Assembly: GCA_030599585.1 (NCBI GenBank)
Contig: JAUVNS010000011.1
Coordinates: forward strand, 137,061 to 201,060
Length of the DNA: 64,000 nt
Reading direction: 5' to 3'
Source: Promethearchaeota archaeon
Lineage (GTDB): Archaea; Asgardarchaeota; Lokiarchaeia; Sigyniarchaeales; SOKP01
Each line of letters begins with the position of its first letter. Position 1 is the first letter of the stretch. This document shows positions 22,562-29,614 of this stretch, piece by piece. The translations under genes and the position numbers were made by a program. The notes beneath the pieces are model-generated. The model was not told the DNA's origin. It made no database searches and saw nothing but the letters and a program-made list of their open reading frames with translations.

Positions 22562-24973
22562 CTATTTTTTAGGTTTCTTCTTAAATTTAATGTAGAGCGC
22601 TTTATCGAATAAATTTCCAATTTTTAAGGCAATTTTGTTTGAAATTTTGTATCGTTCTCCTTCTAACATCCCTTTAATTTCTTCGGGATTCGGAGAGCGA
22701 TGTAGTCTCTCAGAGAGAATTTCATTAATAAATGTTGCTACTTCATGTTTTATTCTTTCTATATCGGGTAATTTCATATCTGGAACGAAAGATTTAATTT
22801 TTTCGACCGCAAACAAATAAAACTCGCAGAATCTAGAAAAAATATCGCCCTTTAATCCACAATGTAATTGAATTTGTTCAGTTAGTGTTTTTGTATCTTT
22901 TTTGCTCCAATAAAATTGTTGTGGATTCACCCCACGACGGCTAATTCCCATTAAATTTGATGTAATTTTACGTTCAATCCAATTAAATGTGCTTTCTTGA
23001 CGCAACTTAATGATTTCTTTTTTCTTATCATCTTCTTTTTTTTTTTTTTCTACATTCACACTTTCAATTCTAACTTTTTCAAATTCTACTAATTCTTCAA
23101 ACCTTTTTATTAGATCGTAAGCGATACAATACGATACAGGAGATACAAGGTCCGCTTTTAGTTTTAAGGGTGATATCCCTTTATAAACAAAACTTTCTTG
23201 GTTCTTTAACTCTGTCATACTATCTTTGAGAGATTTTATTTTCAAACGTGATAATATAAATCCATTTATAAGAAAAACCTGATTAACTGCATTAAAAACT
23301 ACTACAAGTTCTTTTTGCCTTTTCATGGTTCTCTCGATACTTAACTCCTCCAATTTAACTTGAACCCAATCTTCAAAACCCTTGTTTTCTGTAACCACCA
23401 TTAAAGCCCGGGAGTAAATTGCCTTATCATTTGAAATTATACCATATAACTCTATTATCCTGCTTAATTGCCTTAGAATTTTCGATAATAAATTGTAAAA
23501 TAAATCTGTTACTATATTACTTATTATCTCATCATAGTCAAGAAGAAGTAGTATTTGGGAGTAATTGCTTAAATTCAAACCTTGAAAGAAAATCTTGTCA
23601 ACGGTTTGTTTTTTCCTTACAAACTCTCTCAGATCATTTATATTAATCTCTGTCTTATCCTCTAAAATATCCCATAACTCGATATATTCGGTTTCATTTC
23701 TATAGAGAATTTTAAATAAATCAAATTCAACATTATCAGCAACTTTTGTAATAAATTTCTCAAGATACGGAAATTTCATGCTACATAAGGCTTTTTTTGC
23801 CACATTTATCAAGTTTTTTTGATTGTCATTTAATAAGATTAAATCTTGTTTTTTTATATTATATCTTATCATGCTTTTCTGTACATTTTCAGCTAACTCA
23901 TAATCAACATTCATTAAATGTAAAGTATCCTTAATTCCCCTCTTATTAAGTAAAAAAATAGCATCCTCAAAACTTGATTCATTTAAACTTTGAAGGAAGT
24001 AGATAAAATCATTTGGATTCTTTTTTAACTGCTTAATTAGGGCGATTTTTAATTCTGAAAGAATTATCTTTTCAAATTCATCATAATTAAGATCTTCCTT
24101 AAAGGCGTTTTCAATTGACTTGATAGTTTCTTTTTTTAAATTATTCCCTTCAATAAAAGTTTTTAAGCCTGATATAGATATAGGAAATTTATTTAATTCA
24201 TATTCCATTATACGTTTCTTTATCATCCGGATAGACATTGTTTGGATTTGTAATTCCTTATAGGATTTGAATTCAAATTGGTTTTGCATCCTCTCGATTA
24301 TTCTATTTAGAGTAAAAACCTCAATGAATTTATCTTCTTTCTCTTCCTTCTTCAATTGTTCTTCAATTGGAAGCGAGACGCCTTTAAACGCAGCGCTTTC
24401 TTCTAAAATTTCATTTTTTACGATTTCATTTAAACCAATGATGTCTCCTATAAAATCGTAAAAATAATAGGATGGTGATTTGGATATAATATTTAACAGT
24501 TCTCGTTCGATTTGATTTTCGATTTCCTCTATTCTTTTTCTTCTTTGAGATTGTTGTAGGCGACCTAGCCTTTCGTCTATTAACAATGATAAGAACATAT
24601 TTTCTAAATTAATAATTTCATCGAATAGAGCTCTTTCTAATTCAAAAGAATTTTTTAAAAAAATCTCAACTTCTTCCATTAGAATATGTTTCTCGTCCAT
24701 TTCAAGCTGTTTAGTCGAATCAACTGTCAACTTGTTTGTATCTAAAGATTCTTCTACTTTTATACCCATGTAATGGTACAAATGAACTGCTGCTGTAGCG
24801 ATTAGGAGAGATCGTAATGTAGGTTCTTTACGAATCAATTCGAAAATTTTTTCTTTATCTGCTTCTCTTTTCAAATGGGAAATTATTAAATCTACGGTCT
24901 GAAAAAACCTTGAAGCACTTTCAGTTGCTGTTGATTTTCTTTTTACTCCGCTTATCATAATTTTTTTATCCAC
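22562..24973 (-). CDS. Hypothetical helical protein (803 aa)
   Basis: Long ORF with no recognised motif; overlaps the upstream gene by 19 nt. Confidence 0.8.
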   Translation of the reverse strand: MDKKIMISGVKRKSTATESASRFFQTVDLIISHLKREADKEKIFELIRKEPTLRSLLIATAAVHLYHYMGIKVEESLDTNKLTVDSTKQLEMDEKHILMEEVEIFLKNSFELERALFDEIINLENMFLSLLIDERLGRLQQSQRRKRIEEIENQIERELLNIISKSPSYYFYDFIGDIIGLNEIVKNEILEESAAFKGVSLPIEEQLKKEEKEDKFIEVFTLNRIIERMQNQFEFKSYKELQIQTMSIRMIKKRIMEYELNKFPISISGLKTFIEGNNLKKETIKSIENAFKEDLNYDEFEKIILSELKIALIKQLKKNPNDFIYFLQSLNESSFEDAIFLLNKRGIKDTLHLMNVDYELAENVQKSMIRYNIKKQDLILLNDNQKNLINVAKKALCSMKFPYLEKFITKVADNVEFDLFKILYRNETEYIELWDILEDKTEININDLREFVRKKQTVDKIFFQGLNLSNYSQILLLLDYDEIISNIVTDLFYNLLSKILRQLSRIIELYGIISNDKAIYSRALMVVTENKGFEDWVQVKLEELSIERTMKRQKELVVVFNAVNQVFLINGFILSRLKIKSLKDSMTELKNQESFVYKGISPLKLKADLVSPVSYCIAYDLIKRFEELVEFEKVRIESVNVEKKKKEDDKKKEIIKLRQESTFNWIERKITSNLMGISRRGVNPQQFYWSKKDTKTLTEQIQLHCGLKGDIFSRFCEFYLFAVEKIKSFVPDMKLPDIERIKHEVATFINEILSERLHRSPNPEEIKGMLEGERYKISNKIALKIGNLFDKALYIKFKKKPKK

Positions 24974-27282
24974 TCTCTATATACTTCCTTAAAATTATCT
25001 GCAATATCATATTTTGCTTTATTGTGCCAGTATTTAAACTCAAAAACATGAAATAAGTCAGCGCTGAATAAATCAACTTCTTCCGCAGTTAATTCTTGTT
25101 TTAAAATTAAAGAAACTGGCCGAGGTATTAATTTTGAGAAATATCTGAGCTCATTTTTTTTCAAGTAATTATAAAATGTGTTCTGTTCATCAATACTAAG
25201 ATAATTTTTAGGGATAACTTTTTCTGGCTCAATTTTAAATAAGTTAATCTCTTTTTCAACTTTATTTTGGATATATTTTGGAAATTCAGTTTTTATACCA
25301 ATACAAAATTCATACTGTTTATAGAAATCTATCAAAATTTCTTTTTCTACATCATTTGAAATTCTTAAAATGTATTTGTCTAAAAATTTGAGGAATGCTT
25401 CTGGTTCCTGCTCGTTTGATTCACGTTCTTCTAAATATTTTATAAATTCAAATAATGTTTCGTCTAAAGACCACTTCCGTATTTCTTCAATACTAAAAAA
25501 TTTCTTAGCATAATCCTTTATCCATTCTAATATATATGTTTTCCAAGTTAAATTTATCGCTCCTATTCGTTTTTCTAGGAAGCGATGGAATCTATTTGCA
25601 AAAGTTACTGGATCACTAATTTCTCCATCTGGTTCTTCTTTAAGAAATCGATTAATAGTAGTATATCTCAGAATGTAGCTTAATAAATATTTTAATTCAT
25701 CTGAGAACCGTTCAAATTTCTTTACATGCGAGTCTATTATTTTTGAATCTTTTTCCATTTGGATTTCGGCGAATGCAATTAAGTCACTAATGTTTAAGTT
25801 AATATTACCATAGAACGATTTGATGTTGTCATTTATTAACTTTTTAAATTCTTTATTTAATATTTCTTCGTTAAAAACACCAACTTTTAATAATACAAAT
25901 GGATTTATCTCTATCTGCGATATTAAATGTTGCTCGAATTTACCCAAAATATTTTGCCCTAAATTTTTAGAAGGTTTTTGTTCATTTTCAAATTTTTCAT
26001 GTAAAATTCTAGTAAAGTGAGAGATCAAAGTATTCAATCTACGGTGTGATAAATATCGCGGAAACGAGTTTCTAATACAACTAATGCTATTTTTAAGGAC
26101 TTCAGCAAAATAATTTATTACAGAACCTAATTCACTTGCCCTCAGCTTTTCTTCACTAATAATTGAAAGAGTCATTGAATTTATAGCTAATTCGCTGATA
26201 GTTCGATAAAAATCAATACTTTCTTCAGAATTTTCAATTATAAATGAGTTATATTTTTCTAACAACTCCGAGATATTACCTATTTCGCCGGTTGTTAGGA
26301 ATTTCTTAGAAATTTTTAAAAAATTATCAACTTTGACATTAAAATCAGTTAACATTTTTTCCATATAGGAAATAATTTCGACACCAGAGAAGAGTTTTTG
26401 ATTTTTACCAAAACTTTCCTCTATTTTAGCTATAAAAAATGATATAACTTTTTCTTGGATTTCATCAGTTGTCCCAGTATTAGCTAATTTAAGTAAATTG
26501 GTTCCTAGAATTAACGTTTTTTCTATAATAAAATTTGCACTCGGCTCTGAAATAGCATATTTAAGGTGATCTATGGTTGACTTTCCAATATATGGTGATT
26601 TAAGCCGATCATATTTTTGATTTGTAAACTTAATCTCAATAGGGCTTTTATTCCAGAGATAATCTACATCCGTTCTTATCGATCCATAAGTGGACAACAT
26701 TTCTTTTTCAGTTGGTAAAGAAACGCTTAAGCCTATTAATTTTTTATTCCATTTATCCTCAATCAAATCCCCATAAAGTTTTTTGCTAAATCGAGTAGCG
26801 AATTTATTATATACCTGAATTTTTTTTTGATGTTCTAATCCGGGATGATTAGAAAACTCTTCTACTTCGTAAAATAATTTACTTATATTGTTAATTGATT
26901 CTCTTGATTTGTGTGGATCTAGATATCCCGTTTCTGGTTTTAAAGCAAGTAATAAACTTTCACACTCCTTATATTTGCCGGGAATGAGTACCATTGATTT
27001 TGGGTAAATGTTTATTTGAGCGTCTTTTTGATCGAAATTGTACAACTCGAATTCTATTGAAAATACTTCAGAACCAGCAAAATCCCTCAACATAGCATTA
27101 TACATTCGAAGGAATGTTATTACTTCCTTAGAAAGCTCGTTAACCATTTCTTTAGTTAGTTTTCCTGGTCCTATTACATCTCCCGCTATTAAATCTGTAG
27201 GGCTAGAGTACCCAAAGATTAATGAAAATTGAAAATTAATAGACTCACGTGTAGTTATCATAATTTCGTTTTTTTTTTTCAA
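24955..27282 (-). CDS. Hypothetical protein (775 aa)
   Basis: Long ORF with no recognised motif. Confidence 0.8.
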   Translation of the reverse strand: MKKKNEIMITTRESINFQFSLIFGYSSPTDLIAGDVIGPGKLTKEMVNELSKEVITFLRMYNAMLRDFAGSEVFSIEFELYNFDQKDAQINIYPKSMVLIPGKYKECESLLLALKPETGYLDPHKSRESINNISKLFYEVEEFSNHPGLEHQKKIQVYNKFATRFSKKLYGDLIEDKWNKKLIGLSVSLPTEKEMLSTYGSIRTDVDYLWNKSPIEIKFTNQKYDRLKSPYIGKSTIDHLKYAISEPSANFIIEKTLILGTNLLKLANTGTTDEIQEKVISFFIAKIEESFGKNQKLFSGVEIISYMEKMLTDFNVKVDNFLKISKKFLTTGEIGNISELLEKYNSFIIENSEESIDFYRTISELAINSMTLSIISEEKLRASELGSVINYFAEVLKNSISCIRNSFPRYLSHRRLNTLISHFTRILHEKFENEQKPSKNLGQNILGKFEQHLISQIEINPFVLLKVGVFNEEILNKEFKKLINDNIKSFYGNINLNISDLIAFAEIQMEKDSKIIDSHVKKFERFSDELKYLLSYILRYTTINRFLKEEPDGEISDPVTFANRFHRFLEKRIGAINLTWKTYILEWIKDYAKKFFSIEEIRKWSLDETLFEFIKYLEERESNEQEPEAFLKFLDKYILRISNDVEKEILIDFYKQYEFCIGIKTEFPKYIQNKVEKEINLFKIEPEKVIPKNYLSIDEQNTFYNYLKKNELRYFSKLIPRPVSLILKQELTAEEVDLFSADLFHVFEFKYWHNKAKYDIADNFKEVYREWIKKL

Positions 27283-27498
27283 ATCTATTTTTATAAAAGA
27301 TAAAAATCATACATTTTAACTTTTAGCAATAGATTTTTTTTGCATTTTGTGTATTACTGTTTATCATTATTTTTCTATGTATTAATTAATAATTATAGAG
27401 AAGAAAAAATAAAGAAATAAAAAGTATCAATATTATATTAATAATAGTTAAGTGAAGTAAAACCTCAAATAGCAATCTACCGTGGATGGTGATACGAA

Positions 27499-27903
27499 TT
27501 GGAGTTTGGTACAGATCTTGGAATTGGGCCCGATGAAATCGAAAAAATAAGTCCTCAAATTACTTTTATCACTTCGAACGCAGATATAGAAGCCATCGCA
27601 CTTGTGAGCTTGGAAGGCTATCAGATCGCTTTTTCAGCGCTTCCGCAATATGAGGTTGATGGCGACCAGTTTTGTGGACTAGCTAGCGCACTTTTAATGA
27701 CTGGAAGTTCAACAATTAAAACACTCTTTCAAGAAGATTTAAGCGAAATAATTGTGAGAGCTGAGAATGGTTATGTTATTGTTAGTAACGCAGGTCGTCT
27801 CGTAATCGTATGTGCAGGAACTATTATTGATACATTGATGAAAACTGTTAAAGTAATGAGAGTTGCTGCAAAGAATTTAGCTATGGTTTTTGAACAAAAA
27901 TAA
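27499..27903 (+). CDS. Roadblock/LC7 (MglB-like) domain protein
   Basis: IEAIALVSLEGYQI...IIVRAENGYVIV pattern; GGTGA SD before TTG. Confidence 0.85.
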   Translation: MEFGTDLGIGPDEIEKISPQITFITSNADIEAIALVSLEGYQIAFSALPQYEVDGDQFCGLASALLMTGSSTIKTLFQEDLSEIIVRAENGYVIVSNAGRLVIVCAGTIIDTLMKTVKVMRVAAKNLAMVFEQK

Positions 27904-27990
27904 TAAAAATTAATTTTTTTATTGAAGAATAAGTTTATATTGCTTCGATAATAATTTTATCAATACAAATACATTTTATGGTTAATATTG

Positions 27991-28062
27991 ATGTTCGCTA
28001 AAATAAACCTCCTTAAATGTTGGCGAGGACTATGGCGTTTTAAAACGCTTTTTCAATGGTAA
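27991..28062 (+). promoter_or_regulatory. Putative Trp leader peptide ORF (MFAKINLLKCWRGLWRFKTLFQW*)
   Basis: Three in-frame TGG codons within 13 codons, ending 151 nt before trpB2; overlapping inverted repeats. Confidence 0.6.
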
Positions 28063-28213
28063 AACCATAAATTTTGCTCTGACTAGTTTTTAACATCATT
28101 TTTTAATAACAAGTATTGCATCTGCAATCAAGCATTATTATTATTGATTTCCAATTTTAAGATGAGACATCATTTAAATTTGATGATGGAAAAATAGTTA
28201 AAAGGAAATAAAT

Positions 28214-29614
28214 ATGACAGATTTTTATAATACAAGAATTTTACTTGAACCGAATGAAATACCAAAAGAGTGGGTTAACATTGTACCAGATTTACCTGCT
28301 CCCATGACGCCCTTAATAAATCCAATGGATGGAAAACCTGCACCTCCTGAACTTGCATTTGCAATATTTCCAAAGGAATGTGTACTTCAGGAAATATCTC
28401 AAGAACCTACAATTCAAATTCCTAAGGAATTAAGGGAGCTTTACGCTAGATCTTATAGGCCTACACCGCTTCATAGAGCATATGGTTTAGAGAAAGAACT
28501 TGGAATTGAAAGCGAAAATATCAAAATTTTCTATAAAAATGAGTCGGTTTCTCCTACGGGATCTCACAAACCAAACACAGCTCTAGCTCAAGCTTACTAT
28601 TCTAAAAGAGATGGAGTCGAGGAATTGATAACTGAAACAGGAGCAGGTCAATGGGGTTCTGCCTTATCTTACGGATGTAATTTATTTGACATAAAGTGTA
28701 CTGTTTACATGGTGAGAGCTAGCTTTATCCAAAAACCGGGAAGAAAAATATTGATGAGAGCTTTTAATGGTCAAGTTCATGCAAGCCCTTCAAAATTAAC
28801 AGAATCTGGAAAATCTTATTATGAAAAAGACCCAGATCACCCAGGAAGTTTAGGAATTGCTATATCTGAAGCGGTTGAACATAGTTTGAGAAGTGAGAAA
28901 TCGAGATATTCTTTAGGGAGCGTTGTGAATTTCGTTCTTTTACATCAAACGATCATAGGACAAGAGGTTAAAGCACAACTACAAAAAGCTAACGTGGAGC
29001 CTGATGTTCTGATTGGATGTATGGGAGGGGGGTCTAATTTAGGAGGTCTAATGATTCCTTTCGCAAAGGAAAAATTACACGGAAAATATCCTGATTTAGA
29101 GATCGTGGGAGTAGAACCCAGAGCGTGCCCAAGTGTAAACAAAGGAGAATATAGATGGGACTTTGGAGATTCTGCCAAAAAAGCTCCAATTTTAAAAATG
29201 TATACATTAGGTCATAATTTTATTCCAAGCCCAATTCATGCAGGAGGATTAAGATATCACGGAATGGCTCCAATAATATCTATATTAGCAAAGAAAAAGA
29301 TAATTTCCTCAGTTATGCATCACCAAACTGAAGTTATTGGAGCAGGTTTGCTTTTTGCTAAGACAGAAGGAATTCTGCCTGCGCCTGAAGCGGCTCATGC
29401 TGTGAAAGAAGCGATTGATCAAGCCTTGAGAGCTAAAGAGAACTCCGAAAAGAAAACAATCGTTTTCTGCTTAAGTGGACATGGATTTTTTGATTTATTA
29501 GCTTATAAAGAATATATGGTTGGTAATTTGATAGATTATGAACTACCAAGCGATGATATCCAAAAAGCTTTAAACGCTCCTGATATGCCTAATATTGATG
29601 ATACGCAGTTTTAA
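28214..29614 (+). CDS. trpB2: Tryptophan synthase beta chain 2 (TrpB2)
   Basis: SPTGSHKPNTA, ETGAGQWG, GGGSN, IHAGGLRYHG and LSGHG motifs. Confidence 0.95.
   Translation: MTDFYNTRILLEPNEIPKEWVNIVPDLPAPMTPLINPMDGKPAPPELAFAIFPKECVLQEISQEPTIQIPKELRELYARSYRPTPLHRAYGLEKELGIESENIKIFYKNESVSPTGSHKPNTALAQAYYSKRDGVEELITETGAGQWGSALSYGCNLFDIKCTVYMVRASFIQKPGRKILMRAFNGQVHASPSKLTESGKSYYEKDPDHPGSLGIAISEAVEHSLRSEKSRYSLGSVVNFVLLHQTIIGQEVKAQLQKANVEPDVLIGCMGGGSNLGGLMIPFAKEKLHGKYPDLEIVGVEPRACPSVNKGEYRWDFGDSAKKAPILKMYTLGHNFIPSPIHAGGLRYHGMAPIISILAKKKIISSVMHHQTEVIGAGLLFAKTEGILPAPEAAHAVKEAIDQALRAKENSEKKTIVFCLSGHGFFDLLAYKEYMVGNLIDYELPSDDIQKALNAPDMPNIDDTQF

Follow-up and report, generated by a model that had tools for sequence, protein, structure and literature searches.

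The window, by which we mean the whole stretch of 64,000 nucleotides that was analysed, carries a short open reading frame (ORF) with three Trp codons, followed downstream by trpB2. We propose, with a probability of roughly two in three, that this ORF is translated into a leader peptide that reports the Trp supply to trpB2 in cis, probably through premature termination of transcription, this output being inferred. The leader ORF alone is not beyond chance, and the case rests on its conservation and on the comparison of relatives. A scan of the 4.85-Mb genome for Trp-rich short ORFs returned 27, nearly all within genes, and a 23-codon ORF with three TGG codons can arise by chance somewhere in a genome of this size.

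The Trp-codon ORF upstream of trpB2 and its conservation

The first-pass annotation had described a Trp-rich leader ORF with trpB2 next downstream, and both were confirmed, from the sequence and from the NCBIfam match of the gene product. The features of the region are as follows, with those of the ORF and the Shine-Dalgarno-like site read directly from the sequence.

27934..27941, + strand: TATA-like box, putative promoter of the leader, ~50 nt 5' of the leader ATG; the transcription start is unmapped
27975-27983 and 28063-28071, + strand: complementary 9-mers flanking the leader ORF, read from the sequence
27978..27985, + strand: element A, the 5' strand of a long-range helix around the leader ORF; pairs with 28061-28068 and lies 5 nt 5' of the start codon
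27991..28062, + strand: leader ORF of 23 codons plus stop (ATG at 27991, TAA at 28060-28062)
28021-23, 28033-35 and 28057-59, + strand: Trp codons (TGG) of the leader ORF
28034..28049, + strand: hairpin P2, with a 6-bp stem and a 4-nt loop; its 5' arm begins in the second Trp codon
28034-28039 with 28044-28049, + strand: usable stem of P2, around a 14-nt palindrome (28035-28048)
28049..28053, + strand: T5 run immediately 3' of P2, giving a hairpin plus T-run pattern in the terminator-like scan
28054..28059, + strand: element B, the nearly invariant motif CA-W-N-GG that follows P2; shared by trpB2 leaders and operon leaders, with no assigned role
28056-28068, + strand: small inverted repeat spanning the leader stop, read from the sequence
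28060..28068, + strand: element C, the 3' strand of the enclosing helix; in the window variant the leader stop codon lies inside it
28072..28104, + strand: T-rich stretch with T4, T5 and T6 runs (28072-28075, 28087-28091, 28099-28104), candidate archaeal termination sites
28115..28128, + strand: P3, a 14-nt palindrome kept mainly in the genus; 60% paired, weak support
28131..28185, + strand: module 2, a conserved block with P4 and P5, from the comparison of relatives
28143-28155, + strand: P4, a small hairpin or palindrome within module 2
28168-28172 with 28181-28185, + strand: P5 hairpin within module 2
28203..28206, + strand: Shine-Dalgarno-like AGGA, 7 nt 5' of the trpB2 start
28214..29614, + strand: trpB2, a stand-alone TrpB-like PLP enzyme (PF00291; NCBIfam NF009057, E 9.5e-193; TIGR01415)

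The window has a base composition of ~30% G+C, and 151 nt separate the stop of the leader ORF from trpB2. The TATA box that had been placed near 27934 was confirmed. A TTTATAAG-type box is kept in genus relatives at the aligned position, and relatives carry GGTGA- or GGAGG-type sites at the Shine-Dalgarno position of trpB2. The gene preceding the leader and trpB2 encodes a Roadblock/LC7 protein. Its start, apparently a TTG at 27499, is overlapped in another frame by a 16-codon ATG ORF with three Trp codons (27486-27536, + strand), which probably reflects chance or a mis-set gene start. Further upstream of the Roadblock gene, two large ORFs of 803 and 775 aa on the - strand (22562-27282) have no Pfam match, and the 775-aa ORF has no NCBIfam match either.

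In the DNA upstream of trpB2 from 30 relatives, a short Trp-codon ORF was found 150-220 nt 5' of the gene in almost all cases, its 3' end consisting of alternating Trp codons, typically W-Q-W-P-W-R, and then a stop within two codons. With GTG and TTG starts allowed, the leader ORF is present in 22 of 22 genus relatives; it also occurs in other families of the order, and in a phylum-wide sample ORFs of this type turned up in no fewer than eight additional Asgard families, including contigs named Thorarchaeota and Ca. Borrarchaeum. The leaders of the relatives have 2-6 Trp codons each, mostly among the last 8 codons, and between families their sequences are almost entirely different except for these codons. 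Under a strict rule (an ORF of at most 70 codons with at least two Trp within the last eight), a leader was found upstream of trpB2 at 69 of 106 Asgard loci, compared to 3 of 106 when the opposite strand was searched and 3.6% of dinucleotide shuffles, with the caveat that related genomes are non-independent samples. The proposal of Trp-responsive control would have been refuted if orthologous leaders lacked Trp-codon ORFs, which is not the case by these counts, and it is supported by the in-frame TGG codons upstream of orthologous trpB2 across the genus, the family, the order and other Asgard families. The requirement that a leader-peptide attenuator has at least two cognate codons near the 3' end of its ORF is met, with three TGG among 23 codons in the window.

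At one locus of the same order (L030, from a single-contig 4.4-Mb genome), two TGG spaced 5 nt and not 6 lie ~490 nt 5' of trpB2. The leader ORF looks frameshifted there, with the TGGs in different frames, and a long hairpin downstream is retained.

The reading frame itself is constrained. The ATG-started frame holds the TGG-NNN-TGG motif in 64 of 73 loci versus 18 of 146 control frames (the other two frames), and the last Trp has a stop no more than two codons behind it in 57 of 73 loci versus 5 of 146 control frames. Such constraints would be expected for a translated sensor and not for a bare RNA motif. It has to be considered that the spaced UGG triplets might be recognised, as an RNA motif, by a protein or a tRNA, in a TRAP-like or T-box-like manner, with the open frame being incidental, and the triplets are indeed 3 nt apart and embedded in structure. 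We regard this as very improbable, because the frame is so strongly constrained, by an ATG upstream and by a stop no more than two codons away. A TRAP-binding leader has 9-11 (G/U)AG triplets spaced 2-3 nt and is under no coding constraint, whereas the Asgard leaders have only 2-6 UGG triplets under frame and stop constraints and so do not qualify. Moreover, Rfam gave no T-box or other relevant match, either at the gathering threshold for the window or at E up to 10 for 27880-28260, and RF00513 (Trp_leader) gave no hit in either search.

Occurrence of the leader at Trp genes

In the window's genome, which is 100% complete by markers, trpB2 is the sole TrpB-like gene, and TrpA, TrpC (IGPS), TrpE and TrpB1 are absent, which leaves trpB2 as the only Trp-forming gene. 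The TrpB2 route to Trp presumably runs from indole and serine, and the switch would hence govern indole salvage. TrpE is present in only 43 of 301 Asgard genomes.

A leader sequence model built from 53 leaders matches 117 of the 135 genomes of the window's family, with ~20 genomes having 2-4 copies; a genome-wide search found no further copies in the window's genome. Behind the extra copies that were checked, the first gene is trpD (12), trpA (2), trpE (2) or a second trpB2 (2), and in the trpD (anthranilate phosphoribosyltransferase) cases this gene heads a trpD-C-F-B-A operon. The position of the leader follows the presence of the pathway: in family genomes without TrpE it is found at trpB2 in 49 of 50, whereas 8 of the 10 with TrpE have no leader at trpB2 and instead have one before the trp operon. 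A search of the 900 nt before trpE had found none, and the leader was found once the search reached the first gene of the operon, trpD. As such, the leader is co-oriented and directly 5' of cognate biosynthesis genes (trpB2, trpD operons, trpA and trpE) in many genomes, as an attenuator should be, and its presence before trpD, trpA and trpE units matches the prediction for a Trp-responsive cis element.

Several loci deviate from this pattern. A second leader class, before trpE, trpA and some trpD (L238-L240, L243, L244, L228), ends in T-W-F-W-x-W-R-W-H-A, has its own P2 arms and lacks module 2; some of its copies, for example L244, have an inverted repeat of ~10 bp ahead of a T6-T10 run. At three trp operon loci of another genus (L211, L212, L216), the leader cassette is separated from trpD by a conserved ORF of ~80 codons, possibly the operon's first gene. 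In three genomes of a sister genus (L152-L154), the region ~250 to 100 nt before trpB2 has lost the leader ORF, along with the 5' arm of P2, by deletion, but the TATA box upstream is still there, as are the 3' arm of P2, elements B and C, and module 2; two of these three genomes have TrpE, and one of the two has a leader before trpD.

Three weak matches of the model adjoin non-Trp genes, namely those for a CxxCxxCC-domain protein, an unnamed protein and a LuxE-like protein. A Trp-rich ORF is missing from most of them, and we did not accept them as true leaders but treated them as noise or decayed copies. With these set aside, the cassette is confined to Trp-synthesis genes. At locus L229 (G311:C17), a weaker leader-like match (E 4e-9) has a 17-codon, Phe-rich ORF with two Trp 5' of the gene for a 347-aa CxxCxxCC-domain protein; it is perhaps a degenerate copy, or else a leader that serves another target.

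Among 80 named trpB2 loci, ~a dozen of them archaeal, no clear leader was found in non-Asgard archaea. Four bacterial loci of that set (L095, L123, L128 and L145, from Smithella, Bacteroidales, Desulfovibrio and another MAG) have upstream short ORFs with 3-4 consecutive or nearly consecutive Trp, which are classical bacterial-type Trp leaders.

RNA structure, possible outputs and the derived copy of the window

The palindrome that had been noticed overlapping the ORF is the core of hairpin P2, which covaries. Across the family, P2 has 23 arm variants with compensatory changes, the two-strand variants including GGCGTT/AACGCY, GGCAT/ATGCC, GTCTTG/TAAGAC and GTTGGC/GCCAAC, and 82% of cells are paired. 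The 5' arm begins -4 to +2 nt from the last TGG, and the loop or the 3' arm contains the leader stop codon. Regulatory codons that overlap or abut a helix, which a stalled ribosome could block, are a further mark of an attenuator that is met via P2. Distant families have unrelated hairpins at the P2 position, as judged by eye, and in one of them the peptide tail G-P-R-G-P is an imprint of the stem and changes as the stem covaries. RNAalifold recovered P2 as the only helix from the genus alignment and no pair from a wider alignment, because the register of P2 shifts among subgroups.

Covariation also supports the suggested pairing between the 9-mers on either side of the ORF: the A:C helix is 74% paired over 56 sequences (alignment A3), and one of its pairs switches from GC (20 sequences) to AU (15) or GU (6). 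P4 is 92% paired, with GC changed to AU on both sides in 4 sequences and with U-G wobbles. A blind search for covarying helices returned only A:C and P4 and no covarying partner for element B; the other high-scoring column pairs, including the UUGG of the Trp codons versus CCAA in module 2, were rejected as conserved short words without covariation. Of the alternative folds that had been envisaged, P2 and the covarying A:C helix are thus supported, but no mutually exclusive antiterminator/terminator helix pair was found with RNAalifold or the blind covariation scan. Similarly, the hairpin postulated at the stop codon exists in the window as an inverted repeat but is not conserved as such. Fold stability was dropped as evidence, since the leader fold is unexceptional against shuffles (z -1.09) and the region 3' of the last Trp codon is not clearly more stable than they are (median z -0.7).

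The U-rich tracts expected after the ORF are present, but at a frequency near chance for AT-rich DNA: a run of at least four T within 30 nt 3' of element B occurs in 43 of 50 family leaders, which such DNA would nearly provide by itself. A scan for terminator-like sites (hairpin plus T-run) gave 2 sites in 1.3 kb versus 0.5 expected, and the T5 adjoining P2 is not kept in more distant relatives.

How such a leader would work is inferred as follows. When charged tRNA-Trp is scarce, the ribosome would stall at the UGG codons, where it may cover or melt P2 and keep A:C from closing; with P2 and A:C unfolded, RNA polymerase would pass the U-rich stretch and trpB2 would be expressed. When Trp is plentiful, the ribosome would finish and depart, the leader RNA would fold into P2 and A:C, and transcription might stop prematurely at the U tracts, be it by intrinsic termination or aided by FttA/aCPSF1. 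A point against this is that hairpins are not known to be required for intrinsic termination in archaea. An output via the U tracts or via FttA termination is plausible but not shown. Whether Asgard archaea use genuine leader-peptide attenuation, in which a ribosome stalled at UGG decides termination by a Pol II-like polymerase, is a question on which we see the balance as even.

Equally, the leader could act on the stability of the mRNA or on the accessibility of the ribosome-binding site. As a separate reading, in which the leader senses Trp by stalling but acts on either of these through RNA folding and not on termination, this appears unlikely to us, and the evidence is divided. In several distant families (L045, L053) a C-rich tract soon after the leader can pair with the trpB2 Shine-Dalgarno, module 2 with the covarying P4 and P5 sits between the leader and the ribosome-binding site, and the T tracts are statistically unremarkable. 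However, no conserved pairing between leader and ribosome-binding site is present in the window's family, and a distance of 130-170 nt from stop to start is long for direct coupling.

Module 2 is a single copy in the window's genome and accompanies the leader at trpD operons too; it could be either a 5' leader RNA structure or a proximal promoter with an operator. In the absence of transcript data, the start of trpB2 transcription may lie downstream of the leader, and a proximal promoter inside module 2 cannot be excluded. The corresponding scenario, that the leader is a short transcription unit of its own and trpB2 is transcribed from a proximal promoter at 28100-28160, with P3 and P4 as operators for a TrpY-like Trp-responsive repressor, is in our view rather unlikely. 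An AT-rich TATA-like sequence and two palindromes (28115-28128 and 28143-28155) do lie 60-100 nt 5' of trpB2, some genomes with a deleted leader ORF retain module 2 (L152-L154), and promoter-level control is the only established archaeal mode according to the abstract of PMC8448881. On the other hand, a proximal promoter leaves unexplained why a Trp-codon ORF and a covarying hairpin precede four kinds of trp unit, and the deletion variants still have the upstream TATA box. The operator reading is also at odds with the changes in P4, which are consistent with pairing in RNA (AU in place of GC on both sides, U-G wobbles), and with the fact that module 2 is found nowhere else in the genome.

The preferred reading of a translated, Trp-reporting leader has to accommodate the state of the window's own copy. 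Its variant is common to five genomes (the window's and four others), whose TrpB2 are 92-94% identical. The three Trp codons that had been counted in the ORF are present, but only the first two are conserved among the five; the third (28057-59) occurs in the window's genome only. The window copy has lost the middle TGG and has acquired five or six substitutions within 9 nt of the Trp cluster. The ancestral stop disappeared with a 2-nt deletion in the loop, so that the ORF is eight codons longer and stops 24 nt downstream, in element C. The ribosome must therefore translate through P2 to reach the stop, and the simple ancestral geometry fails in this variant. These losses, together with the failure of the copy to pass the strict leader rule, are what would be expected if the family were functional and the window's copy were a decaying remnant that no longer regulates. 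We nevertheless consider this doubtful, as all five variant genomes keep an open frame, both Trp codons, P2, elements A, B and C and module 2 in spite of amino-acid changes elsewhere, and two Trp codons suffice in E. coli trpL. Because the codons, the frame and the RNA elements are kept in all five, we think that the window copy is derived yet still working, its regulation being inferred from sequence alone; it could be weakened.

If Asgard archaea indeed use leader-peptide attenuation, they would provide the first example from Archaea. In these closest prokaryotic relatives of eukaryotes, transcription and translation would then have to be tightly coupled and termination sensitive to structure, and the cassette would have moved among trpB2, trpD, trpA and trpE units in the course of the loss or splitting of the pathway. 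If the cassette functions in the way its appearance suggests, bacteria are not alone in sensing amino acids through the ribosome, and the cassette may represent a compact natural test object for archaeal transcription-translation coupling and termination control, be it at U tracts or by FttA. It would also mark TrpB2 indole salvage as the Trp source of a Trp-auxotrophic Asgard archaeon, which bears on its syntrophic lifestyle.

The leader in comparison with known systems

A full-text literature search found no report of leader-peptide attenuation in archaea, and almost all known archaeal gene regulation is placed at the promoter in the abstract of PMC8448881. TrpY of Methanothermobacter shares with the leader the Trp-responsive control of trp genes in an archaeon, but it is a DNA-binding protein that acts at the promoter, and no leader ORF is involved. 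The TnaC peptide of the tna operon is similar in being a short Trp-containing leader peptide that controls downstream termination. However, TnaC responds to free Trp by way of conserved Trp, Asp and Pro residues, and the operon that it induces is catabolic, whereas the Asgard leaders share only the alternating Trp positions and their targets are biosynthetic; the criteria for a TnaC-type arrest peptide (Trp/Asp/Pro positions, arrest at the stop, a catabolic target) are thus not met.

Attenuation of the pyrBI type and the mycobacterial cysteine-rich leaderless short ORFs (bioRxiv 10.1101/834739) are closer in that the position of the ribosome decides a single downstream structure. Such a simple design fits the Asgard leaders, since only the codons, the adjacent hairpin and the stop are universal among them. 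The differences lie in the signal (UTP-dependent coupling or Cys codons), in the domain of life and in the experimental proof, which exists for those systems.

The nearest counterparts in layout are trpL (RF00513) and other bacterial Trp leaders. The Asgard host differs in being an archaeon, whose polymerase resembles Pol II and which has neither Rho nor hairpin termination of the NusG type; the Trp codons of its leaders alternate (W-x-W-x-W), whereas those of trpL are in tandem; and no alternative 2:3 and 3:4 helices were found, the ORF being enclosed in its entirety by a long-range helix. In principle, the leader is nonetheless of the bacterial trpL design: both have a short ORF with Trp codons near the stop, located 5' of Trp-synthesis genes, a hairpin that involves the regulatory codons, a stop codon in or next to this hairpin, and U-rich sequence thereafter.
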